From assembly GCA_965203095.1 (NCBI GenBank), contig OZ241877.1:1152001-1216000 (forward strand): 64,000 bases of DNA. The letters run 5' to 3'. Source of the DNA: Bdellovibrionales bacterium. Its GTDB lineage: Bacteria > Bdellovibrionota > Bdellovibrionia > Bdellovibrionales > UBA1609. Below are positions 19,541 through 36,008 of the stretch, one piece after another (position 1 is the stretch's first letter; the number at the start of each line of letters is the position of its first letter). The position numbers and the translations under genes were made by a program. Under the pieces are notes generated by a model. It made no database searches. It was not told where the DNA came from and saw only the letters and a program-made list of their open reading frames with translations.

Positions 19541-20287
19541 CTATTTTTTATTTACTACCTCCATAAAAGGTTTGAAAAGGTCGATAGGGATAGGCAAAAC
19601 AATAGTTTGCTTCCCCTCACCTGTCACTTCCTGCAAAGCCTGAAGGTAAGCTAACTGAAGAGCAGAGGGACTTTGAGAAATAATTTGTGAAGCCTCTTTA
19701 AGTTTTTCTGCTCGTTGAAATTCCCCTTCGGCGTTAATGACCTTAGCCCGCCGTTCCCTTTCCGCCTCAGCTTGTTTGGCCATAGCCCTTTGCATCTCTT
19801 GTGGTAGATCAATATGCTTGACCTCAACTACAGAAACTTTAATGCCCCAAGGCTCTGTAGCTTTATCCAATATTTCCTGTAGGGTGTGATTGATTTTATC
19901 CCGACTGGAAAGCAGATCATCCATTTCATATTGCCCCAAAGTGGATCGCAAAGTGGTTTGAGCGAGCTGGCTGGTAGCAAAATAAAAATCTTCCACCTGT
20001 GTGACAGCCTTTTCTGCCTCTACCACACGGAAATAAATAACCGCGTTGACCTTCATACTCACATTATCCAAAGTGATTACATCTTGAGGTTTAATATCCA
20101 TAGTGACTGTTCGAGTATCTACGCGAATAATCCTTTCCACTCCGGGAATAAGGATGATAAGCCCCGGGCCTCTCACACCCACTGAGCGACCAAACCTTAA
20201 AATCACACCTCTTTCCCACTCTGGAAGAATTTTAATCACAGTGAAAACTAAAAAAAGAATAGCCCCTAAAACATAAAGCATCCACAT
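19541..20287 (-). CDS. SPFH/stomatin (slipin) protein
   Basis: [49 protein letters not shown]. Confidence 0.96.
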
Positions 20288-20616
20288 AATAGCCTCCTTA
20301 AATTATTAAAGCCTTTCCCTACTTGTAAGCCTTTTATTGAGAAACATAGCCATAAAAGCGACTCAGGCAAGACCTTTGTAGATTTTTATACAAAGCCTTA
20401 AAGGCAAAAGCAAGAAAAAAACAACATTTTTTAAGCTTATTTTAAAAAACAGAGGCTTTTTCACAAAAAAAAGCCCTTTCCACTCAAAAAAACAGCCTAT
20501 CCCTCTCTTTAAACTTTAAAGGGCAAAAACTTACTCAGGCCAAGTTTATGTAAAATGGAACATATCGGAAAAAGAATTTGATCTTAAACCCAATTATCTC
20601 TTATGCTCTATTTTAA

Positions 20617-20985
20617 TGAAAACATCAAAAGACTTTAGATTTTAGAAAGAAATATATTGGCAAAGTGTTTATAATTTACAGCAAAAACAATCAAATAGCC
20701 AATAAGAATATATTAAGTGAAATTCAAAATGAAATACACTATTTAAAACAAGATAATAAAGAACTCAAAATAAGTTTTCGTGAAAATTCTAATATAATGA
20801 CTGGCATAAAAACAAATATAAGCCATAAACAAATCACTATGGAGATATAGCCTGTAGCTCAACCTTTAACAGCCATAATTTAAGTCAGCTTGTTCAAAAA
20901 AATATTTCAGCTTATTTTTATGATTTTAACTGTTAAGTTCATGGATATTTTAAAAAGATTGGTAGGGGGAGAAACAGGAGGGTTT
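20617..20985 (+). pseudogene. Probable decayed coiled-coil protein gene; includes ORF 20665-20850
   Basis: Heptad-like ILSEIQNEIHYLKQDNKEL fragment flanked by short interrupted frames and a hydrophobic stretch further downstream. Confidence 0.3.
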
Positions 20986-20992
20986 TGTAAAA

Positions 20993-21066
20993 TATACTGA
21001 TCACAGTGGAAATTTGCGGTCAAAACAGAGTAGAAAAGGCAGGAATTTTTAAATAAAATCGGTATA
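20993..21066. mobile_element. 74-bp MITE-like repeat family B, copy 2
   Basis: Ends TATACTGAT...ATCGGTATA form a 9-bp inverted repeat with 1 mismatch; homologous to 17783-17856. Confidence 0.75.
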
Positions 21067-21209
21067 ATAGTAAATTTTCAAGATTTTTTTCAGTTAAAAA
21101 TTTGACATAGTGTTTTTAATTGTATTATGGTGTTTTTTTATGCTTGACTTTTTTAAGCACTAACTAAAAAGGGGTTGCCATTTGAATACTAAAAAAGGCT
21201 ATAACAAAT

Positions 21210-22550
21210 ATGGCAAAAAATAAAAATTTTATATTTACAATTAAAGATGTTCGGTGTTTTGCTGGGGAGCAAAATTTAGACATTCGCCCATTGACCTTTC
21301 TAACAGGGGAGAACAGCACAGGCAAAACAACAATTATGGGTTGCTTCTCCACAATGCATGACCTCATTGGCTATCCATATAGAAGATATCCTCCTTTTAA
21401 TAGAGATCCTTACTCCTTTGGAGGATTTAAAGAGATTGTTAGAAAAGCTAAAGACAACAAAGATCAAAAAACAACATTTGATATAGGGATAGAATCTGAT
21501 GATCCTTCTTTTAAATTCCTGTTTTCTTTTAAAGAGAATAAGGAAGATTCCAGCCCTGGCATTGATTGTATAAATATTCGTTTTGAGGATTTTGAGATTT
21601 TTTTTGATACGGTCAGCACAAGTCCTATTCTTAGTTTAAAATATAAAACAGAAAGCTTTAAAATCCCACTATCAAAACAAACTTTCCACCCAGTAAATGA
21701 AATCTGGCACTTTTGGCCCTTTGGTTTTTTTCATTTTATAACAGAAGCTATGGACAAAGAAGGGAAAAAAAAGAAAAAAGATTCAAAAAAATGGATAAAA
21801 TTTAAAACTATTGCAAAAAAATATGAAAAAAAAATAATGCGTTATATGCGTGATCATTTTTCAGAATTCATCATTAGTTTGGCCCCTATTCGTTCTAAGC
21901 CTAAGAGGACTTATGATCCAGTAGGTGAAGAGTTGCGGGTAGTAAGCCCTGAGGGAAGTGAAGTTCCTCTGTTCCTTATGCGTTTGAGCGGGCAAAAAAA
22001 AGAAGATTGGAAAGATCTGCAAACCAAGCTCACTCGTTTTGGAAAAGCCTCTGGCCTGTTTTCTGACATTGAAGTTAAAAAATATGGTGAATCTATGGGG
22101 GAACCCTTCCAACTGCAATTCCAAGTAAAGGGTGCTCAATCCAATATTATGGATATAGGCTACGGAGTGAGCCAGATTTTGCCCTTGTTAGTTCATCTTT
22201 TTCGCTCTCCTTCCAGCAGACGATTTTTACTGCAACAGCCGGAAGTTCATCTTCACCCCAAGGCTCAAGCCGAGCTGACCTCTCTTTTGATTCAATCTGT
22301 AAAACAAAATCAATCTTTCCTAATTGAAACCCACAGTGACTTTATGATTGATAGAACTCGAATAGAAATACAAAAAGGCAATATACCACCAGATCAGGTC
22401 TCTTTAATTTACTTAGAATCTCTAAAAACCGGAGGAGTGAAAGCACATAATATTTCCTTTGACAAAAAAGGGGATATTTTAAAAACACCTAAAGGCTATA
22501 GAGATTTTTTCCTGAAAGAGACCGATCAATTTTTAGGCTTTCAGGATTAA
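21210..22550 (+). CDS. ABC-superfamily ATPase (AAA_15/AAA_21-like) with DUF3696-like C-terminus
   Basis: Walker A GENSTGKT, signature-like DIGYGVSQ, Walker B region LLQQPEVHLHP, H-loop IETHS, tail FDKKG...P.GY.DFF. Confidence 0.88.
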   Translation: MAKNKNFIFTIKDVRCFAGEQNLDIRPLTFLTGENSTGKTTIMGCFSTMHDLIGYPYRRYPPFNRDPYSFGGFKEIVRKAKDNKDQKTTFDIGIESDDPSFKFLFSFKENKEDSSPGIDCINIRFEDFEIFFDTVSTSPILSLKYKTESFKIPLSKQTFHPVNEIWHFWPFGFFHFITEAMDKEGKKKKKDSKKWIKFKTIAKKYEKKIMRYMRDHFSEFIISLAPIRSKPKRTYDPVGEELRVVSPEGSEVPLFLMRLSGQKKEDWKDLQTKLTRFGKASGLFSDIEVKKYGESMGEPFQLQFQVKGAQSNIMDIGYGVSQILPLLVHLFRSPSSRRFLLQQPEVHLHPKAQAELTSLLIQSVKQNQSFLIETHSDFMIDRTRIEIQKGNIPPDQVSLIYLESLKTGGVKAHNISFDKKGDILKTPKGYRDFFLKETDQFLGFQD

Positions 22551-22553
22551 AAC

Positions 22554-22976
22554 ATGTGTATGCTTATAGATACTAACATTTGGGGGGAATTTTTTAAAAA
22601 GACAAAAGATAGCCAGCCCATTCATAATTGGATAAAGAATGGCGGGAAATTGGTTTATTCCAACCATAACCAAATAAAAAAAGAAATGGGATCTTTGATA
22701 AAAAAATTCAGCCAATCCCAAAAACAGGCTCGCCGGAATCCTCTAAAAATCATTCCAAAAGAGAAATTAGAAGCAGAAATAAAATCTATTAAAAAAACAT
22801 ATCCATTAAAATCAGACGACTCACATATACTGGCTTTAGCCAAAGCGGGAGGGGCAACATTGCTTTATTCTAAAGATACAAACCTCCGTGCAGATTTTAA
22901 GAAAATTATAAAAGGCAAAATCTATAAAAACAAAACTCACGAACATCTTTTAACTCAAAACACCTGCCCACAATAA
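22554..22976 (+). CDS. PIN-domain ribonuclease
   Basis: LIDTN at N-terminus, SDDSHILALA, LLYSKD..L acidic active-site pattern; starts 3 nt after the ATPase stop. Confidence 0.82.
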   Translation: MCMLIDTNIWGEFFKKTKDSQPIHNWIKNGGKLVYSNHNQIKKEMGSLIKKFSQSQKQARRNPLKIIPKEKLEAEIKSIKKTYPLKSDDSHILALAKAGGATLLYSKDTNLRADFKKIIKGKIYKNKTHEHLLTQNTCPQ

Positions 22977-23003
22977 ATTATTGAATATAAAAATCAAAGA
23001 GGT

Positions 23004-24311
23004 TTAGGATTCAGAGATTTTTTGGACAAATAGATCCATTTTTTTATGTTTCAATACTTTAACAAAATCTCCTACTTTAAGTGCTTGATTACTTCTAAAT
23101 TTCCAGTTCTCTCCATGGACAACTATCCAGCCCTTTTTTCCCTCTTTATCTAAAATTTCTGTCACTTCCCCCTCTTCATTCAAAACAGCTCCCATAGCTG
23201 TTGTGTCCCTCTTCATACGAACTGTTTTAACAGCTAAATAACAAGCCCCCAACATCAAAAGCCCCACAACAAGAGACACTGCCAAAATAAGGAACAAAGG
23301 CAGTTGATAGCCCCCCATCTCCACCGGATCAAAAAGATACACACTTCCCAAAATAAAAGAAATCACCCCTCCAATGCCCAAAATGCCAAAACTGGGAACT
23401 AACATTTCTGCCAAAAATAACATAAGCCCGGCAAAAATTAAAGCCACAGCCCCCCAAGCCACACTAAAAGCATTAAGCCCTACTAAAGAGATGATTAAAC
23501 CAATCCCCCCCATCACACCGGGGACTAAAGTTCCGGGATGAGTAAATTCAAAATAAATTAACATAATACTGCCCAAAAACAAAAGATAGAGAATTTGTGG
23601 ATCGGCAAAAAAATTCAACACACTATAGCGAAATCCAGTGGGAAAAACCTTAAGAGAACCTATGTTTATATGGGTCTTCCCCCCTTCCTTCATTTCCACA
23701 TTGCGGTTTTTTGAAAAAGCCAAAAACTCATCAGTTGTATCGCCAACAAAATCTATCGCTTTTAAAGCTAAAGCCTCTTCAGCTGTCACAGACTTAGCCT
23801 TTGTGACAATCTCCTCTGCAAACTTCTCATTTCTCTTCCTTAACTTGCTGAGGGATTTAACAAAGGATACGGTGTCGTTTACAGCCTTTTTCCTCATATC
23901 GCTGTCTTTTTCCATCTGTTTGCCCATCATAATAGGGGTGGAAGCCCCTAAATTAGTGCCTCTTAGAGCACCACTCACATGACAGGCTTGTAATATGATC
24001 GCTCCAGCAGAAGTGGCCTGAGCACCCTTAGGGGAGACCAAACACAAAAAAGGTAAGGGGGAATTGAGAATCTCCTGCACTATCAGTCGAGTTGCTGGAA
24101 GAGAACCACCGGGGGTATCCACTTCCATTAAAATAGAAAAACAGTTTTCCGATTTTGAAAAAGCGATAGCCTTTTTGATAATATCTAAAGTGACTGGAGT
24201 GATAGCTGTTTTAATAGGCAAACTTGTTGTGCAAGCCCATAGTGAAACAGGGCATAGAACCAAAAGAAAACCAATTATAGCTATAATTTTTTTAAAAAAT
24301 AACTTTGCCAT
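23004..24311 (-). CDS. nfeD: NfeD membrane-bound serine protease (long form)
   Basis: DTPGG, ATSAGA catalytic Ser, KKAVND, TM region, C-terminal OB domain VHGENW; ATG 24311 (alternative TTG 24347). Confidence 0.93.
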   Translation of the reverse strand: MAKLFFKKIIAIIGFLLVLCPVSLWACTTSLPIKTAITPVTLDIIKKAIAFSKSENCFSILMEVDTPGGSLPATRLIVQEILNSPLPFLCLVSPKGAQATSAGAIILQACHVSGALRGTNLGASTPIMMGKQMEKDSDMRKKAVNDTVSFVKSLSKLRKRNEKFAEEIVTKAKSVTAEEALALKAIDFVGDTTDEFLAFSKNRNVEMKEGGKTHINIGSLKVFPTGFRYSVLNFFADPQILYLLFLGSIMLIYFEFTHPGTLVPGVMGGIGLIISLVGLNAFSVAWGAVALIFAGLMLFLAEMLVPSFGILGIGGVISFILGSVYLFDPVEMGGYQLPLFLILAVSLVVGLLMLGACYLAVKTVRMKRDTTAMGAVLNEEGEVTEILDKEGKKGWIVVHGENWKFRSNQALKVGDFVKVLKHKKMDLFVQKISES

Positions 24312-24383
24312 AAGACTTAAAATAATTTTTATTTCATTTTTTGTCAATAAATTTTTTTATATTTTTTAATATGTTCAATAATT

Positions 24384-24629
24384 TAGTCGCCAGCGAAAAA
24401 CCTCTGTTTTTTGTCGCATAAGCAAAAGCCAGCAATGAGGATCCAAGGTGTTGTTGTTCTGAAAAAGAATGGTCCTTTGGACAAAAAAGCTAAAGAATAG
24501 GCTTTTTAAAAAAGCTTTACGGAAGGACAAACTTTTATGGATTCCCGCCTTGAGCGGGAATCCAGGAATCTTTGTCTTTCTTGTAAAACAAGGTATCTAC
24601 AAACTATAGAGGTTTTTCACGAGCGACTA
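24384..24629. mobile_element. MITE-like repeat family A, copy 4; carries GGATTCCCGCCTTGAGCGGGAATCC palindrome at 24539-24563
   Basis: TAGTCGCCAGCGAAAAACCTCT...AGAGGTTTTTCACGAGCGACTA terminal inverted repeats; internal GAATGGTCCTTTGGACAAA arm shared with copy 2. Confidence 0.82.
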
Positions 24630-24704: not shown

Positions 24705-25580
24705 ATGAAAAACAATTCATTTAAAAAAAATATAAAGCATGTGAGTATTTTTTATCGCTCAAAAAATCCGTCCATTAAAAAGAAAATTCAAGAAATCTCC
24801 CTTTATTTAAAAAAACAAAATATAAGTTGTGATTTAGCCGATCTGAACGGCCAAAAACCGGCAAAAAAGCCAGATATAATGGTTTGTTTAGGTGGAGATG
24901 GTGCTTTTTTAAAAGCTGTGAAATACGGAAGTGGTGCTCCTATTTTAGGAATCAATATGGGTTCTCTTGGTTTTTTAACGCCTCATTCAGCAAAAAAAAG
25001 CTTAGATCTTTTAGAAAAAACTTTAAAAGGTCAAATGTTTTTAAAGAAAAACTTTTTTTTAAAAACCCAACTCTACAACAACAGCTCATCTAAAGGTGAA
25101 CCGGAGATCAAAACAAAAAAATTAGAAAAGACTTTTTATTCCGTCAATGACATTGTTATAGAAAGAGGGTCTTTTAGCCAGCTCATCAATGTTTCTATTT
25201 TCATAAATAAAGAATATATTTATTCTTTAAAATCCGATGGTCTGGTTATTTCCTCTCCTATTGGATCCACTGCTTACAATTTGGCCGCTGGAGGGCCTAT
25301 CCTTCATCCTAAAGCCTCCTCACTTGTGATCACTCCTATTTGTTCACACAGCCTAACCAACCGCCCTGTGGTTATCCCTGACACTTCGGAAATTTGTCTG
25401 ACTTTTGACCGCACTAAATCCTTTTTAACAATAGACGGAGAGACAAAAGAAAAACTTTTTAGCCAAAGAACAGTCCTCATTACAAAAGACAAAAGCTGTT
25501 TTCTATCCCTTGCAGAAAAAGAAAGTGGCGATGGCTTTGCTCTTCTTAGGAAAAAACTCAAGTTTGGGCAAAGGGATTAA
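24705..25580 (+). CDS. nadK: NAD kinase
   Basis: [39 protein letters not shown]. Confidence 0.96.
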
Positions 25581-29952: not shown

Positions 29953-32856
29953 TTATAACTCTGCATCTTCAATAGAAGTGCAAACTTTATAATCAACTCC
30001 TATGCTTTCAAAGTGTGCCTTCCCGCACTGAATTTTTTTACTTTCCAAAGCTCGTAAGCCCAATTTATCTAAAGAGGATTTTGTTTCTCGTATCATATAA
30101 ACAATATCTCCATTTTGTTTGAGAATAGCCCAATCAGGGTTATATTCCCCAACGGGAGTTGAGACTTTAAACCAGCCAGGGAGTTTAATAAAATACTTTA
30201 TATTGCTCATATTCTCAAGAGCCTCTGCAAAACTTTTTTCAGGATGGGATTCATAATAGATATAATCATAAACTGATTTTTTAGTAGGTATAATTTTATC
30301 ATCTATAAATTCCATTTTATGCTCTTCATCTTCAAACCGAGACATTTCATAAGACTCTTTATCTAACTTTTCATATTTAATGCCTTCAATAACCAATTGG
30401 TTTAACACAGTTTTTATCTCCTTAACAACCAAATCCATAAATTTTTGCGGATTAGAAATAAAATCGTCCCACCTCTTGGATTGATCTAAAATTTTAAAAA
30501 TCGTTTTTCTGGTGATAGGGATTCTATCTTGAATATAAGATAAAATATCAGGAATCTTGTTTCTCTCCGGAAGATCATAATGATCCGGTGTTTTTGTGAG
30601 ATGAGCTTTTACACCTTTGGTTTTAAGTTCAATATCCACCTCAGAAACAGAAATTTTAATCGGTTGCACAGCTTCCATATTATAAATGGCCTTTCCTGCT
30701 TTTTTTATTAAGTCTTTTGAATCGTAATAAACATTATAAAATGTTTTTTTAGATATAGCTTTCCAAAATTTTTTAAATTCAGGATCTAACAAGGTTTTTT
30801 TATTTAAGCCTGCCCGTTTTTTTGTTTTATATTTCCGAATGTATCTTCCTGATTGGTATTCCTCCACTCTGCAAATAATCTCACTACGAATATTTTTAAA
30901 ATTTTTAGAAACTAAAAAATGATTGTTTTGGACAGCTTTTGCAAATTCTTCCTTAATCACCCCCTCATTAGACAGATAAGATAATTCTTTAAGCTCCTTC
31001 CATATTGCTTTAGATTCTTCTAAACGGATTTGATGTTCTTTTCCCTGTTTTTTAAAAGAGATTCCAACAAATGCATTGGTAGGCAAAGCTCCAAAAACAA
31101 AACCGCATTCCTCTTCAAACTCTTTTTGCAAACTGTTTACAAAACTATCATAACTTTCATTAGCTATAACAATCAAATTGTTAATCAAATCATCCTGCAC
31201 TCTTTCACCTTTTTGATTGACAGGAAGTCTTAAACCTCTTCCAATTTCTTGTCTTTTTTTTAAGGTAGAACCAGTTTCGTTTAATGTGCAGATTTGAAAA
31301 ATGTTGGGGTTATCCCAACCTTCTCTTAAAGCGGAATGAGTAAAAATAAACTTTAAAGGATTGTTAATGTCTAATAGTTTTTCTTTTTCTTTCATAATTA
31401 AATTATAGGTATTTGTATCTTCTTTAGTATCTCCTTTAGTATTTTTAAAATGACCTTTTTTATCTTTGGAAAAATATCCATTATGAACTATGGAAACCGA
31501 TCCCATATCTTGCTCTTTTTTATATTTTTTAGATAACTCCTTATAAATTTCTTCAAACCATTTCCCGTAAATTCCTAAAGAAACATTTCCTGCATTATAA
31601 ACTCTGTAATTTTCTACACGATCCAAAAAAAAGAGAGATAAAACTTTTATTCCTGTTCCCTTTAACTGAGCTTCTTTTTCAAAATGAGTTTCTATGGTTT
31701 TCCTGATCTGAGCCTTTACTACTTCTTTTTTAAAACCTCCCTGTTCCTGTTTTTCTGCAATTTTTAAGCCATTAGAAAACTTAACAAACTCATTGCCTGG
31801 TTTACAGCTAATTTCATTGACCTTAAACCCATATTTATAAATAGGATTTTCATCTGAATAAACAAATAAATCGTCATTCTGCCTACAGTTTTTATTTACT
31901 AATTTTCGCCCTTCTTTTGTATTTTTAAAAAACTGGATTTGTGAAGTGATCTTGTTGTTTTTATTAGTGATCTTTAAAACTTTTATATAGGCTTGTGTAG
32001 GATCATTTTCCTCAACTAAAGAGGCGACAGAGATTTTTTTAACTAATTTTTTTTGAAATGCCTGCACAGGGTCTAAACGATACACCGGATTATATAAATT
32101 TCTATGGGTTGCAGAATACCGTAAGGTGCAAAGGGGATTCAAGGATTTTATAGCTGAACGAGATTTTTCACTTTCCATATTTTGAGGTTCATCAATAATT
32201 ACAATGGGTTTTATGTTTTTTATAAATTCAATAGGTTTTATTCCTCCAGCTTGATCTCTTGCTTCATGAATGATGTTTTTATCTTTGTTAAAAGCATCTA
32301 TGTTGATAACCATAATTTGCAAATCATTTCCTCTGGCAAAATTCCTCAATAAACTGATTTTTTTAGATTGATAAATAAAAGGAATAAAAACAGGATTGTT
32401 ATATAGCTCTTTAAAATGAGATTGCATTATATCAAAGGATTTTAAAACTCCTTCCCGAATAGCTATAGAGGGAACAACAATGATGAATTTGCTAAATCCA
32501 TATTGCCTGTTCAATTCAAATATTGTTCTTAAATAGACATAAGTTTTTCCTGTTCCTGTTTCCATTTCCACAGTAAAGTTTTTTCCTTTACTACCTATAC
32601 TTTCTTTGGAGAAAATTTGATTTTTATCTTGCACTTTTTTTAAATTTTTATTTATTTGTTCATCGCTTAAGGTCAGCTTATTTCCATAAAGTGATTCCAT
32701 ACCCCCTTTGGATAAGGACAATTCTTGTATGCTGGCAATTTTTCCTCCTGTGACTCCAAAAACATTGGACGAAATAGTTTGTCCTTTAAACAAATCCTTC
32801 ACAGCGGAAATAGCGTTTAACTGGTATTTTTGATTGGGCTTAAATTGAAACTTCAT
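29953..32856 (-). CDS. res: Type III restriction-modification Res subunit (helicase + nuclease)
   Basis: METGTGKT, IIDEPQ, RYSAT, ALREGWDNPN, QEIGRGLR, nuclease YNPDW...IRETK. Confidence 0.95.
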   Translation of the reverse strand: MKFQFKPNQKYQLNAISAVKDLFKGQTISSNVFGVTGGKIASIQELSLSKGGMESLYGNKLTLSDEQINKNLKKVQDKNQIFSKESIGSKGKNFTVEMETGTGKTYVYLRTIFELNRQYGFSKFIIVVPSIAIREGVLKSFDIMQSHFKELYNNPVFIPFIYQSKKISLLRNFARGNDLQIMVINIDAFNKDKNIIHEARDQAGGIKPIEFIKNIKPIVIIDEPQNMESEKSRSAIKSLNPLCTLRYSATHRNLYNPVYRLDPVQAFQKKLVKKISVASLVEENDPTQAYIKVLKITNKNNKITSQIQFFKNTKEGRKLVNKNCRQNDDLFVYSDENPIYKYGFKVNEISCKPGNEFVKFSNGLKIAEKQEQGGFKKEVVKAQIRKTIETHFEKEAQLKGTGIKVLSLFFLDRVENYRVYNAGNVSLGIYGKWFEEIYKELSKKYKKEQDMGSVSIVHNGYFSKDKKGHFKNTKGDTKEDTNTYNLIMKEKEKLLDINNPLKFIFTHSALREGWDNPNIFQICTLNETGSTLKKRQEIGRGLRLPVNQKGERVQDDLINNLIVIANESYDSFVNSLQKEFEEECGFVFGALPTNAFVGISFKKQGKEHQIRLEESKAIWKELKELSYLSNEGVIKEEFAKAVQNNHFLVSKNFKNIRSEIICRVEEYQSGRYIRKYKTKKRAGLNKKTLLDPEFKKFWKAISKKTFYNVYYDSKDLIKKAGKAIYNMEAVQPIKISVSEVDIELKTKGVKAHLTKTPDHYDLPERNKIPDILSYIQDRIPITRKTIFKILDQSKRWDDFISNPQKFMDLVVKEIKTVLNQLVIEGIKYEKLDKESYEMSRFEDEEHKMEFIDDKIIPTKKSVYDYIYYESHPEKSFAEALENMSNIKYFIKLPGWFKVSTPVGEYNPDWAILKQNGDIVYMIRETKSSLDKLGLRALESKKIQCGKAHFESIGVDYKVCTSIEDAEL

Positions 32857-33953
32857 TTGCTCCTCTTCTTTTTTAAATTCTTCTTGCTTTTTATTGTTGG
32901 TTTGACAACTTTTTTAGACATCGTTTTGTTCTTTTGTTTTTGTTCTAAAGTGCGAACAGATTGTCTTAAATCATGTAAATATTTTTTATCCGCTTCTCTT
33001 TCAGCTCGCAATCTTCTTTTTTTTAAGAAAATACTATATTGCTCATAAGCCCAAGCCGTAGCAATTTCATGACTAACTAAACCAGAATGACTTAAGACTA
33101 ATAATTCTGTATCCTTTAGAAATTTATCTAAAAAATTTTCCCAATCGTGGATATAAATATTTTGTTTTCGTTTAGCACGAAACTCAGCTTGATCTAAAAA
33201 CATTACAGTAATACGATTAAGAATATCTATCTCTTTCGCAGTCAAATAATTTTTTGCTATAACTACATCTTTTTTCAGCACATATTTGCCTTTCCATGCC
33301 GTTAATCCCATATTAGCTTTACTTGCTTTTGCTCTTTTATATACAATTTCAGCGGCCGTCAGTCCTGTTGCAGCATAGTGCATTTTATTTTGCATTATAG
33401 CAAAAAAAATCTGTGTCTCCTCTTCTTCTCTCTTATAATCTTCTGCTAAAGAAAAAATCTCCCGAACACGTTGATACACACGAGCTTCACTGGCACGAAT
33501 AGATCGGATCCGTTCCAGCAACTCATCAAAATAATCTATAATCCCAATATTACCTTTTAGCCGTTCATCATCTAAAGTAAAACCTTTAATCAAATACTCT
33601 TTTAAATGAATTGTAGCCCATTGACGAAATTGCATACCACGAGAAGAACGGACACGATAGCCAATAGCTAAAATCATATCCAAGTTATAATGTTTTAACT
33701 TCCTTTGAATACGACGTTTCCCCTCCAAACGAACTTGTAAGTATTTCTTACAAGTTGCCACTTCAGATAATTCTTTTTCTTGATAAATAGTTTGAATATG
33801 CATTGTAATATTTTGTGAAGTTGTCTGAAAAAGTTGAGCAATATGCTCTTGAGTCAGCCACACTGTTTTATCTTGTAGGCGAACATCAATCCGATCTTTT
33901 CCATCTTTGGTGCGATAAATGATAATTTGTGAATCAGGTATCTTTTTTGACAT
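32853..33953 (-). CDS. rhuM: RhuM family DNA-binding protein
   Basis: TVWLTQ..IA.LF, HYNLDMILAIGYRVRS..G.QFRQWA, YFDELLERIR.IRASE, QNKMHYA. Confidence 0.92.
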   Translation of the reverse strand: MSKKIPDSQIIIYRTKDGKDRIDVRLQDKTVWLTQEHIAQLFQTTSQNITMHIQTIYQEKELSEVATCKKYLQVRLEGKRRIQRKLKHYNLDMILAIGYRVRSSRGMQFRQWATIHLKEYLIKGFTLDDERLKGNIGIIDYFDELLERIRSIRASEARVYQRVREIFSLAEDYKREEEETQIFFAIMQNKMHYAATGLTAAEIVYKRAKASKANMGLTAWKGKYVLKKDVVIAKNYLTAKEIDILNRITVMFLDQAEFRAKRKQNIYIHDWENFLDKFLKDTELLVLSHSGLVSHEIATAWAYEQYSIFLKKRRLRAEREADKKYLHDLRQSVRTLEQKQKNKTMSKKVVKPTIKSKKNLKKKRSK

Positions 33954-33977
33954 TTTTCAACACTCCTCTGTTTCGTG

Positions 33978-36008
33978 TTATATGACTCTAAAATCCCTTA
34001 CTCCAAAAGAGTCAAAAGTATCTTTAGCATTGGTTTTTAGCCAGTCATTACCTTCAAAGCTTTTATCTAAACAAAGCACACGGGCAGGCTCAAGTTTTGC
34101 CATTTCCTGAATAAGCTCTTTTGTGATTCTTTTTTCAAGGCAAACCAAAAGAGCATTATTTTCTATAGAATAAACTGTCTTACCGGACATTTTTAGAATT
34201 TTTATTTTGGTTGTGAGCAAATAGCCTGTTTTAATAAGAATCTCATAAAGCAAATCTTCGGTAGTGGATTTTTTATCAATCAACTCTTCAAGTTGCATTT
34301 TGATTTGCCCGGAACTGTCCTTTGAGATTTGTTCATTCCATATTTTGAAATTGGATTTATCCAATTTAAAAACCTTAAAACCTAAGTCCCAATTGTTTTG
34401 TATTTCTTTTGGAGGATTTTTGTCTTTCTTGTTTATAGCCGGAAAAAGTCCGGCCTGTTGGTTTTCTAAAGAGGAGGAGGCTTTTTGATTTTTGGTTTTA
34501 AGAGAGTTTTTGTTTTCTGTTTCTTTAATTTTCTTAATGGCCCGGCGGATTCGCTCTTTTCCTATATCCGCAATAGTTTTGTATCCTTCTTTATAAGCGG
34601 ATGTATCTTCCTGAGTAGGTTCTGGTAGCTGGACACAAATATATTTCCTGCTCCCTCCGTCTTCTAAATTTTTCTCATAAACCGCGTGAGCCGTTGTCCC
34701 GGAACCAGCAAAAAAATCTAAGATAATATCGTCTTTATCTGTTCTTGAAACTTCTATTAAATACTTAATTAAACAGGTGGGTTTTGAATAGTCAAAAGGT
34801 ATATTTAAAGCATCAAGTTCATGAGATCCTTTCTGATTTATATGATTTTCTATCAAACTGTTTGGCTTAGCTGAAGCATTATTAATTACATCCAACAAGT
34901 AGGTTTTTGTAAATACATTATACTTTGCTGGTTTTTTGTTTTTATCAATTAAGTTTGAAGATCTTGTTTCCTTAATAACAATTTTATCTTGATCCGCTTT
35001 AAACTTTTTTTTCGTCCATCGCCAAATTCCATCACCCAACACTGGTCGTTCCGGTGGAAAAGTGGAACCAGGAGGAATAACCTCGTCACCATTAGGGCAT
35101 TTTATCCAAAATCGCTGTTCAGGATTTCTGTTCTGAATAGTAGACATAAACAAGCGAACAAGCTGATATTTTTCTCCTTTTCGTGCTCCAGTTTGTTCTA
35201 CAAGATTGTATGCTTTAGTATTCACACCACCAAAAAAAGGTTTAGCATTATCTATGTTTTTTGTATAAGTCAAAATATAATCAAAATTAGGAGCCCAAAA
35301 ATCTCCTTTATTATTACTTTTTTTAGTAATTCTTCCTGCACATCCAATAAAATTCTCTTCACCAAAAATTTCATCGCAAATTTTTCTTAAGTTAGCAACT
35401 TCATTGTCGTCAATGCTAATAAAAATCACCCCGTCATCTCTCAAAAGATTTCTTGCAAGAAACAAGCGGGGATACATCATATTGAGCCAGTTAGAATGAA
35501 ACCGCCCATCGGTTTCCTGATTGGTAGAAAATCTTTTCCCCTCAATATCCTTTTGCCCTGTGTATTTTAAATAAGTATCCAAACTTTCACTATATTTGTC
35601 AGGATAGATAAAATCCTTCCCTGTGTTATAGGGCGGGTCAATATAAATCATTTTGATTTTTCCATAATAAGAATGCTGGAGCAGTTTTAAAACTTCCAGA
35701 TTATCCCCCTCTATAAACAAATTTTGTGTCTTTTCCCAATCCAAACTCTCTTTTTTGCAGGGCTTTAAAGTTCCAAGGCTTTGCTCTTGAATTATGCGAA
35801 AGCAATCCGCTTTCCCCGGCCAACTAATATGATACCGCTCTACCTCTTTATCTAATATTTCCCCAAGCGTGGTTTTTAATCTCTCCCAGTCAATGTTTTT
35901 CTCATTAAAGACTTCAGGAAAAAGTTGTCTTAACTTTTTCTTCTGATCCTCTGTAATACTCATAGACCGCAAATCCAACTTCTTTAGCTTTTGTTTGGTG
36001 TTTTTCAT
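33978..36008 (-). CDS. mod: Type III restriction-modification Mod subunit (N6-adenine DNA methyltransferase)
   Basis: IEGDNLEVLK, IYIDPPYN, WLNMMYPRL, ILDFFAGSGTT; TRD between motifs IV and I. Confidence 0.96.
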   Translation of the reverse strand: MKNTKQKLKKLDLRSMSITEDQKKKLRQLFPEVFNEKNIDWERLKTTLGEILDKEVERYHISWPGKADCFRIIQEQSLGTLKPCKKESLDWEKTQNLFIEGDNLEVLKLLQHSYYGKIKMIYIDPPYNTGKDFIYPDKYSESLDTYLKYTGQKDIEGKRFSTNQETDGRFHSNWLNMMYPRLFLARNLLRDDGVIFISIDDNEVANLRKICDEIFGEENFIGCAGRITKKSNNKGDFWAPNFDYILTYTKNIDNAKPFFGGVNTKAYNLVEQTGARKGEKYQLVRLFMSTIQNRNPEQRFWIKCPNGDEVIPPGSTFPPERPVLGDGIWRWTKKKFKADQDKIVIKETRSSNLIDKNKKPAKYNVFTKTYLLDVINNASAKPNSLIENHINQKGSHELDALNIPFDYSKPTCLIKYLIEVSRTDKDDIILDFFAGSGTTAHAVYEKNLEDGGSRKYICVQLPEPTQEDTSAYKEGYKTIADIGKERIRRAIKKIKETENKNSLKTKNQKASSSLENQQAGLFPAINKKDKNPPKEIQNNWDLGFKVFKLDKSNFKIWNEQISKDSSGQIKMQLEELIDKKSTTEDLLYEILIKTGYLLTTKIKILKMSGKTVYSIENNALLVCLEKRITKELIQEMAKLEPARVLCLDKSFEGNDWLKTNAKDTFDSFGVRDFRVI

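Follow-up and report, generated by a model that had tools for sequence, protein, structure and literature searches.

We analyzed a 64,000-nt stretch of the genome of a Bdellovibrionales bacterium (assembly GCA_965203095.1, contig OZ241877.1, positions 1,152,001 to 1,216,000; hereafter the window) and found that two adjacent genes within it, encoding an ABC-type ATPase and a VapC-like PIN nuclease, belong to a family of pairs that travel as a fixed unit. By profile hidden Markov model (HMM) and phylogeny, the pair is not a member of HEC-03 and constitutes a separate clade of the architecture known from that system. According to Payne et al. (bioRxiv 10.1101/2024.01.29.577857), HEC-03 consists of an ABC ATPase and a VapC-like PIN protein, reduces phage plaquing with both genes required, and is apparently toxic on induction; the pairing, which a sequence-only reading of the window had put forward as undescribed, was therefore already on record. 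We favor the view that the pair is an anti-phage module of the HEC-03, Menshen and PARIS type, in which the ATP-bound ATPase would restrain an RNase until phage infection triggers translation arrest.

The two genes are as follows.

21210..22550, + strand: ABC (OLD/AAA_15-type) ATPase of the NsnB/HEC-03 superfamily, 446 aa; predicted sensor and PIN keeper
22554..22976, + strand: stand-alone VapC-like PIN nuclease, 140 aa; predicted RNase effector

The list of open reading frames (ORFs), Pfam and structure models bear out this layout as it was first read, with 3 nt between the genes and 586 aa in the two proteins together.

The two genes form a conserved pair

We fetched 175 loci encoding homologs of the ATPase, of which 166 had room downstream for a PIN gene. 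A PIN of one family lies directly behind the ATPase in 163 of these 166 loci, mostly within 12 nt, in a sample that counts broken PINs, contains duplicates and kin, and came from collection scans using a pattern that contains the QQ motif described below. The three unpaired loci are this genome's third copy, one remnant and one frameshift. Two checks avoid the bias of the QQ pattern. When 702 genomes were searched with a PIN profile, a QQ ATPase was found upstream in 13 of 13 family-level matches (three already among the fetched loci); two weak matches, at E about 1e-5, are ordinary PINs beside small genes. When ~800 proteobacterial genomes were searched with the NsnB and PDC-M55A models, a PIN of this family was found downstream in 10 of 11 clade members, and the eleventh (L229) is a tandem copy behind such a PIN. 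At this last locus (L219 and L229, G106:C156) the order is ATPase-PIN-ATPase; the second ATPase has a degraded D-loop and is followed by an HTH-IrrE gene.

Both genes are under purifying selection: dN/dS, computable in 10 of 11 pairs, is 0.13-0.28 for the ATPase gene and 0.07-0.39 for the PIN gene. The identity between any two ATPases correlates with that between their PINs (Spearman 0.74 over 132 loci), as kinship alone can bring about. These results show that the ATPase and PIN genes are a real unit. The expectation that homologs remain paired is borne out from both directions, and the earlier proposal of a conserved two-gene sensor/effector module stands on this pairing, on purifying selection and on the copies in restriction-modification (R-M) operons and phage modules described below.

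This genome carries a second intact pair (G000:C1:350838-352568; L007, L189), whose ATPase and PIN are 50% and 44% identical to those in the window and which lies between type III mod and res. A third ATPase copy (G000:C1:1739618-1740901; L011, L190) is divergent and is followed only by ~17 codons resembling the start of the PIN. This third copy adjoins an apparent rRNA gene, and its orthologs in genomes G002 and G007 keep a full PIN.

The distribution is patchy: the pair is present in 5 of 9 congeners, in none of 31 other genomes of the family or order, and in 1 of 350 genomes of the phylum. The PIN profile found 2,202 representatives at 50% clustering, 1,808 of them at E 1e-10. Named hosts include Bdellovibrionales, Poribacteria, Caldilineaceae, Binatia, Acidobacteriota and Proteobacteria, and the family extends across many uncultured phyla; many of these host taxa are typically sponge-associated. 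We found no homolog at E 1e-30 among 72,556 plasmids, and viral contigs scanned with the PIN as a single sequence gave no match. Horizontal mobility of the module is the best explanation.

The ATPase keeps Walker A and has lost both acids of Walker B

The ATPase scores over the Pfam cut-offs for AAA_15 and AAA_21, and its AlphaFold model (pLDDT 86.7) matches the heads of Rad50, SMC and PtuA, which makes it ABC-type. Sequence searches against the PDB returned OLD, PtuA and Rad50 and no solved structure from the clade, and no NCBIfam model scored over its cut-off. Three elements were located in the protein.

21306..21329, + strand: Walker A, residues 33-40 (GENSTGKT), intact in the homolog alignment
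22224..22238, + strand: degenerate Walker B, FLLQQ at residues 339-343, with Gln in place of each acidic residue, as in the phmmer homologs
22449..22547, + strand: DUF3696-like C-terminal tail by alignment, residues 414-446, final helix 430-442; predicted PIN-holding element

Walker A residues G33, N35, S36, G38 and K39 are invariant among 64 aligned homologs, and the motif has the GENSTGKT form in 120 of 120 phmmer homologs; a GYG signature and the ETHS loop (H-loop) are retained alongside it. Walker B reads QQ in all 120 clade matches found with phmmer, compared to EQ in HEC-03 ATPases (13 of 15) and EN in the NsnB proteins of Menshen (5 of 6). The catalytic glutamate is thus missing in the clade, HEC-03 and NsnB alike, and the clade lacks the first acid too, leaving it with neither of the acidic residues on which ATP splitting normally depends. 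In ABC ATPases, replacement of the catalytic Walker B Glu by Gln makes hydrolysis slower and locks the dimer in its ATP-closed state. Judged from its motifs, the ATPase is probably hydrolysis-dead.

The C-terminal tail aligns with the tails of NsnB and HEC-03 ATPases and falls below the Pfam cut-off for DUF3696, so that the original wording, "DUF3696-like", was apt. Four of its residues (P427, F433, F434, E437) are 99-100% conserved among 132 homologs.

The PIN protein has an intact acidic tetrad

The PIN protein scores 41.8 bits on PF01850, against a cut-off of 23.6. The best structural matches of its model (pLDDT 90.6) are VapC toxins, with Z 8.0-8.6 and rmsd 2.9-3.5 Å over 111-120 residues. 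The acidic motifs, described as intact from the start, are present as D6, E44, D89 and D108; of 143 aligned members, 139 have an acidic residue at all four positions, as do 148 of 150 independent representatives. We predict that the protein is a VapC-type RNase effector. The best 150 representatives are 137-193 aa long, so the PIN is unfused. Other searches gave little: by sequence, the PDB yielded weak VapC matches only (E 0.4-1), Foldseek yielded no PIN match at E 0.001, and the ESM Atlas yielded unnamed or PIN clusters only. C2 and C138 are conserved in more than 90% of the family; a disulfide or a metal site is among their possible roles.

Relation to HEC-03

The clade resembles HEC-03 in several ways. 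Both have two genes, an ABC ATPase and then a VapC-like PIN, with no VapB and no third gene; both ATPases have a DUF3696-like tail and Gln at the catalytic Walker B position; both are also found embedded in other defense operons; and the catalytic residues of the HEC-03 PIN align with those of the clade PIN. They differ in that Walker B is QQ in the clade but EQ in HEC-03, the tail is shorter in the clade, and the PINs, mostly 135-160 aa in the clade compared to 158-182 aa in HEC-03, are only 17% identical.

For comparison, we gathered real HEC-03 and Menshen loci with the PADLOC models. PADLOC represents HEC-03 by PDLC04147 and PDLC04148; the former, a 159-position PIN model, is labelled HEC-03A, whereas the preprint gives that name to the ATPase. 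None of 143 clade PINs matched PDLC04147 at E 0.01, and the model found nothing in this genome at E 10. As a control, it matched 15 of 15 PINs beside ATPases of the HEC-03 clade, nine of which had been found using that model. A comparison of the PIN profile with the HEC-03 PIN profile (HHalign) gave a probability of 89.5 and E 2e-6, with 17% identity over 120 columns and the catalytic residues in register. At the level of sequence profiles, the two PINs are distant relatives.

We then built an ATPase tree of 62 rows (30 clade, 13 HEC-03, 6 Menshen and 13 others), picked from a 100-row FastTree set and rooted at the midpoint only. Clade, HEC-03 and Menshen ATPases fall on three separate branches, with SH-aLRT values of 99, 98 and 99; grouping the clade with HEC-03 is not rejected by the approximately unbiased (AU) test (p 0.16). 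Among PADLOC models, the ATPase matches NsnB best (E 2e-41, 141 bits), followed by PDC-M55A (3e-32), the HEC-03 ATPase (2e-24) and AriA (4e-21); the HEC-03 match, at 84.5 bits, covers the C-terminal half only. PADLOC made no real match to this PIN. In the strict sense there is no full match to a described system, because the PIN matches no HEC-03 or NsnC model.

The pair could still be a divergent HEC-03 that current PADLOC models overlook, and nothing new. We give this classification, which is compatible with the mechanism proposed below, a small chance. The shared gene order and domain types, the homologous PIN profiles and the AU result all speak for it, but the HEC-03 PIN model separates its control PINs completely from those of the clade, the PIN identity is low, the ATPases form separate clades with high branch values and score higher on NsnB than on HEC-03, and Walker B is QQ rather than EQ.

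Two further small groups in the tree (L212, L230, L214, L217, L227) combine a DUF3696-type ATPase with a PIN-like partner of 183-203 aa and are not named by PADLOC models. ATPase and PIN pairs thus recur across the superfamily.

Defense and phage neighbors

Several copies lie within defense or phage gene sets. The pair is found between type III mod and res in the second copy in this genome, in G007 and at four other loci (L020, L048, L083, L026), and after type I hsdM-hsdS at three (L022, L030, L032). In G002 and G007 it lies behind an E2/ThiF operon of the ubiquitin-like type (L191:2804-6927, L192:4194-8321), whose three genes encode a 155-aa protein, a Prok-E2_E-like protein and a ThiF/E1 protein. 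This operon probably resembles the bacterial ubiquitin-like defense operons. One phage contig (L175:3476-8398) carries the pair as an insertion that separates the genes for the large terminase and the portal and runs on the strand opposite to them; on another (L173), the ATPase lies beside a lysis cassette and the contig ends after it. Taken with the counts given below, the defense context of the pair is mixed.

A proposed mechanism and its alternatives

In the mechanism that we propose, the ATPase would bind ATP, with slow or no hydrolysis, and form ATP-closed dimers or tetramers, whose paired C-terminal DUF3696-like helices would hold one PIN. We infer this docking because NsnB dimers, as modeled by Li et al. 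2025 (PMC12065111), grip the PIN-like domain of NsnC through their DUF3696 helices. A phage cue would then free or activate the PIN; the likeliest cues would be a drop in ATP or a protein made by the phage, for instance a DNA mimic that counters restriction. PARIS is the model for a protein cue: there, sensing of Ocr, which depends on ATP, sets a tRNA nuclease free (PMC11464382). A guard against anti-restriction proteins would also be well placed inside R-M operons. Once released, the PIN would cut host tRNA or rRNA as VapC does, stopping translation and aborting the infection. Of these steps, we are least sure of the trigger and the RNA target.

More speculatively, the ATPase may be a non-hydrolyzing, nucleotide-gated clamp that reads the ATP of the cell, so that a drop caused by phage or by other defenses would release the tRNA or rRNA nuclease; the pair might also preserve an ancestral state, with ATPase and active PIN, that lies behind the inactive PIN docking domain of Menshen. 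We hold this extension to be doubtful.

In favor of a defensive module with a restrained RNase, we count the phage protection by HEC-03 with both genes and the homology of the PIN profiles, together with the fixed pairing, the purifying selection, the copies inside R-M operons, phage modules and behind the E2/ThiF operon, the patchy distribution and the precedent of PARIS. A complex prediction with two copies of the ATPase (residues 10-446) and one PIN (residues 1-126) scored 0.00 against a mark of 0.32 and counts neither way. Across 79 genome loci the PIN is frameshifted, truncated or lost in nine and the ATPase in none, which would be the polarity expected of a toxin and its keeper.

A number of observations pull the other way. 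The asymmetry in broken genes is biased, the loci having been ranked by their ATPase match, and among 56 metagenome loci the flags for breakage fell on none of the PINs and on four ATPases, three of which are still full-length ORFs. The composition of the ATPase-anchored sample, noted above with its count, belongs here as well. Two reports describe relevant nucleases: the DS-5 PIN nuclease is not toxic without its partner (bioRxiv 10.1101/2025.01.08.631726), and AriB alone is only mildly toxic (PMC11464382). These data mean that simple restraint and release may be wrong. Most copies, including the one in the window, sit among housekeeping genes, and R-M genes make up only 10 of 85 scanned upstream genes (drawn from 89, leaving out one duplicate and three VWA paralogs). 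The expectation that homologs are enriched near defense genes held only for individual copies, those inside R-M and phage modules; over controls there was no enrichment, with PADLOC matches for 18 of 126 genes directly downstream, 13 of 100 genes at distances above 3.5 kb and 4 of 43 genes of the window. This test is not discriminating, as false positives among housekeeping genes, and genes that themselves lie in islands, are part of its controls.

An alternative is an anti-phage complex whose ATPase would activate or target the PIN instead of restraining it; the nuclease would act while bound in the complex, with phage RNA or DNA as a possible substrate, and would not kill the cell. HEC-03 needs both of its genes, the DS-5 PIN needs its partner, and AriB's toxicity hinges on an earlier association with AriA (PMC11464382). 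Against such an arrangement, losses affect the PIN more often than the ATPase, the PIN's fold is closest to VapC toxins, and the induced HEC-03 is apparently toxic, as described in the preprint; we think it rather unlikely.

The housekeeping neighbors would also suit a selfish toxin-antitoxin (addiction) module, with the ATPase as the oversized antitoxin of a VapC-like toxin, spreading by insertion and stabilizing R-M loci with no role in phage defense. Defense neighbors are not enriched over controls, many insertions are solitary ones among housekeeping genes, the PIN decays while the ATPase is kept, and the ATPase is probably hydrolysis-dead. But a passive antitoxin would have no need of the invariant or nearly invariant Walker A and H-loop, protection against phage is described for the related HEC-03 pair, and the plasmid search found no homolog. 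An addiction module strikes us as unlikely, and an anti-phage module with an ATP-gated RNase remains the reading that we favor.

Comparison with Menshen and other systems

The clade's ABC ATPase resembles NsnB of Menshen in its GxG signature, its degenerate Walker B and its C-terminal helix, and in both cases a PIN-fold protein comes directly after it. Li et al. (PMC12065111) describe EN in Walker B and the GxG changes for NsnB; in their account, the PIN of NsnC is inactive and is joined to a nuclease of the BECR or another type. Unlike Menshen, the clade has no DUF262 protein NsnA, its PIN is of the active type and stands alone, its ATPase is ~440 aa long compared to ~370 aa for NsnB, and its Walker B is QQ, not EN. 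The NsnB model matches the ATPase over model positions 6-343 of 345 at E 2e-41, compared to E 1e-95 or better for four true NsnB proteins. DUF262 (PF03235) was found in 0 of the 85 scanned upstream genes of homologs, while NsnA was recovered in 6 of 6 Menshen control loci; these calls come from a Pfam scan, as a motif regular expression missed 5 of 6 true NsnA proteins and was dropped. No NsnC model matched among 143 PINs, and there was no profile match to five NsnC sequences. The missing upstream NsnA, the intact and unfused PIN and the separate ATPase clade rule out membership in Menshen.

It is likewise very improbable that the pair is a Menshen remnant, an NsnB with a truncated NsnC using a DUF262 sensor encoded elsewhere: NsnB is the best PADLOC match and the genome does have DUF262 matches, but these all lie more than 40 kb from any copy of the pair, the upstream genes and the ATPase clade differ as described, and the PIN is catalytically intact by sequence, lacks a C-terminal effector and has no NsnC profile match.

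Other ATPases that we sampled precede partners of 316-360 aa, mostly without an upstream ORF of the size of NsnA.

In PARIS (AriA-AriB) and Septu (PtuA-PtuB), too, an ABC ATPase scaffold controls a separate nuclease, but their effectors are TOPRIM or HNH proteins and not PIN; AriA, moreover, has the catalytic Walker B glutamate (E393) and measurable ATPase activity (PMC11464382). The ATPase model of the PADLOC candidate PDC-M55 matches at E 3e-32, whereas its partner, the 315-position PDC-M55B, is matched by 0 of 143 PINs. VapBC shares the PIN fold and the acidic tetrad, and VapC toxins are the best structural matches of the PIN; here, in contrast, there is no small antitoxin gene and the fixed partner is an ABC ATPase of 430-490 aa. 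Indeed, in 13 of 13 PIN-anchored family matches the upstream gene encodes the ATPase and not a small antitoxin. Full-text searches turned up no paper that describes the clade or PDC-M55, though the pairing may already be listed in the ABC ATPase classification of Krishnan et al. 2020, or the clade in the supplementary tables for HEC/PDC and Menshen.

The window copy is an insertion between nfeD and slipin

The pair lies where it was first placed, between nfeD and slipin, with the following features around it.

19541..20287, - strand: slipin (SPFH/Band 7), host flank outside the module; Pfam Band_7 and congener comparison
20993..21067, strand not assigned: dispersed repeat of ~75 bp resembling a miniature inverted-repeat transposable element (MITE), short inverted ends, within the inserted region; another copy near window 17781
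21102..21131, + strand: promoter-like site ~80 nt 5' of the ATPase gene, perfect -35, 10 of 12 matches
23004..24347, - strand: nfeD, host flank outside the module; Pfam and congener comparison

The pair runs on the strand opposite to its immediate neighbors, as claimed, though not to all: the gene at 24705-25580 is also on the + strand. In this genome nfeD and slipin are 2,716 nt apart. In 6 of 9 congeners nfeD is followed by slipin with 11-445 nt between the matches, and in one the two are convergent and 98 nt apart; in the other two they are unlinked. Because seven of nine congeners have the genes close together without room for the pair, this copy is an insertion into the nfeD-slipin operon. 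Public contigs over 21020-24600 and 20273-21046 show zero differences from the assembly. We looked for a target-site duplication or terminal repeats bounding the insert and found none. The GC content at third codon positions is 0.30 and 0.31 for the pair and 0.36 and 0.39 for the flanks; ftsA is also at 0.30, so composition adds little to the case for insertion.

The slipin gene is divergent from the ATPase gene, with a gap of 922 nt (20288-21209). We found no antitoxin-like gene upstream of the ATPase in this gap, consistent with the initial statement that no VapB-type gene is visible; the sole ORF of at least 60 aa with a start codon wholly within it has 61 aa. Six-frame searches of the gap matched the dispersed repeat only. 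An AT-rich open frame of 76 codons (20620-20850, + strand) has no match elsewhere in the genome or the fetched loci and is possibly a gene remnant. The promoter-like site is a lead only, being the best of 13 in the region where 9.6 +/- 3.2 are expected by chance. The MITE-like repeat has 43 matches in the genome, 36 of at least 60 nt, but the other two ATPase copies have no such match in the 1.5 kb around them; we therefore do not treat it as the vehicle of insertion.

A functional link of the pair to nfeD and slipin was rejected, given the empty site in congeners; neither gene is among the listed recurrent neighbor clusters of homologs or the scanned upstream genes. In four congeners (L183-L186; G002, G003, G005, G006), only the C-terminal third of NfeD is matched before slipin, with short open frames; the long form of NfeD is present in this genome and five others. 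Elsewhere in the window, a type III R-M operon (mod, a RhuM-family gene and res, 29953-36008) is inserted in the cell-division cluster between murB and a ddl-like gene.

Implications

The combination of ABC ATPase and PIN is known from HEC-03, and the pair adds no new architecture; what is new is a separate clade with a QQ Walker B. If the pair is protective, it would add a large family for which PADLOC makes no system call: it scores the ATPase as a lone NsnB and leaves the PIN unrecognized. At 586 aa in total, it is a compact test case for how ATPases of the HEC-03 and Menshen types control their effectors, and its invariant QQ Walker B poses the question of whether ATP binding without hydrolysis may be enough for sensing.

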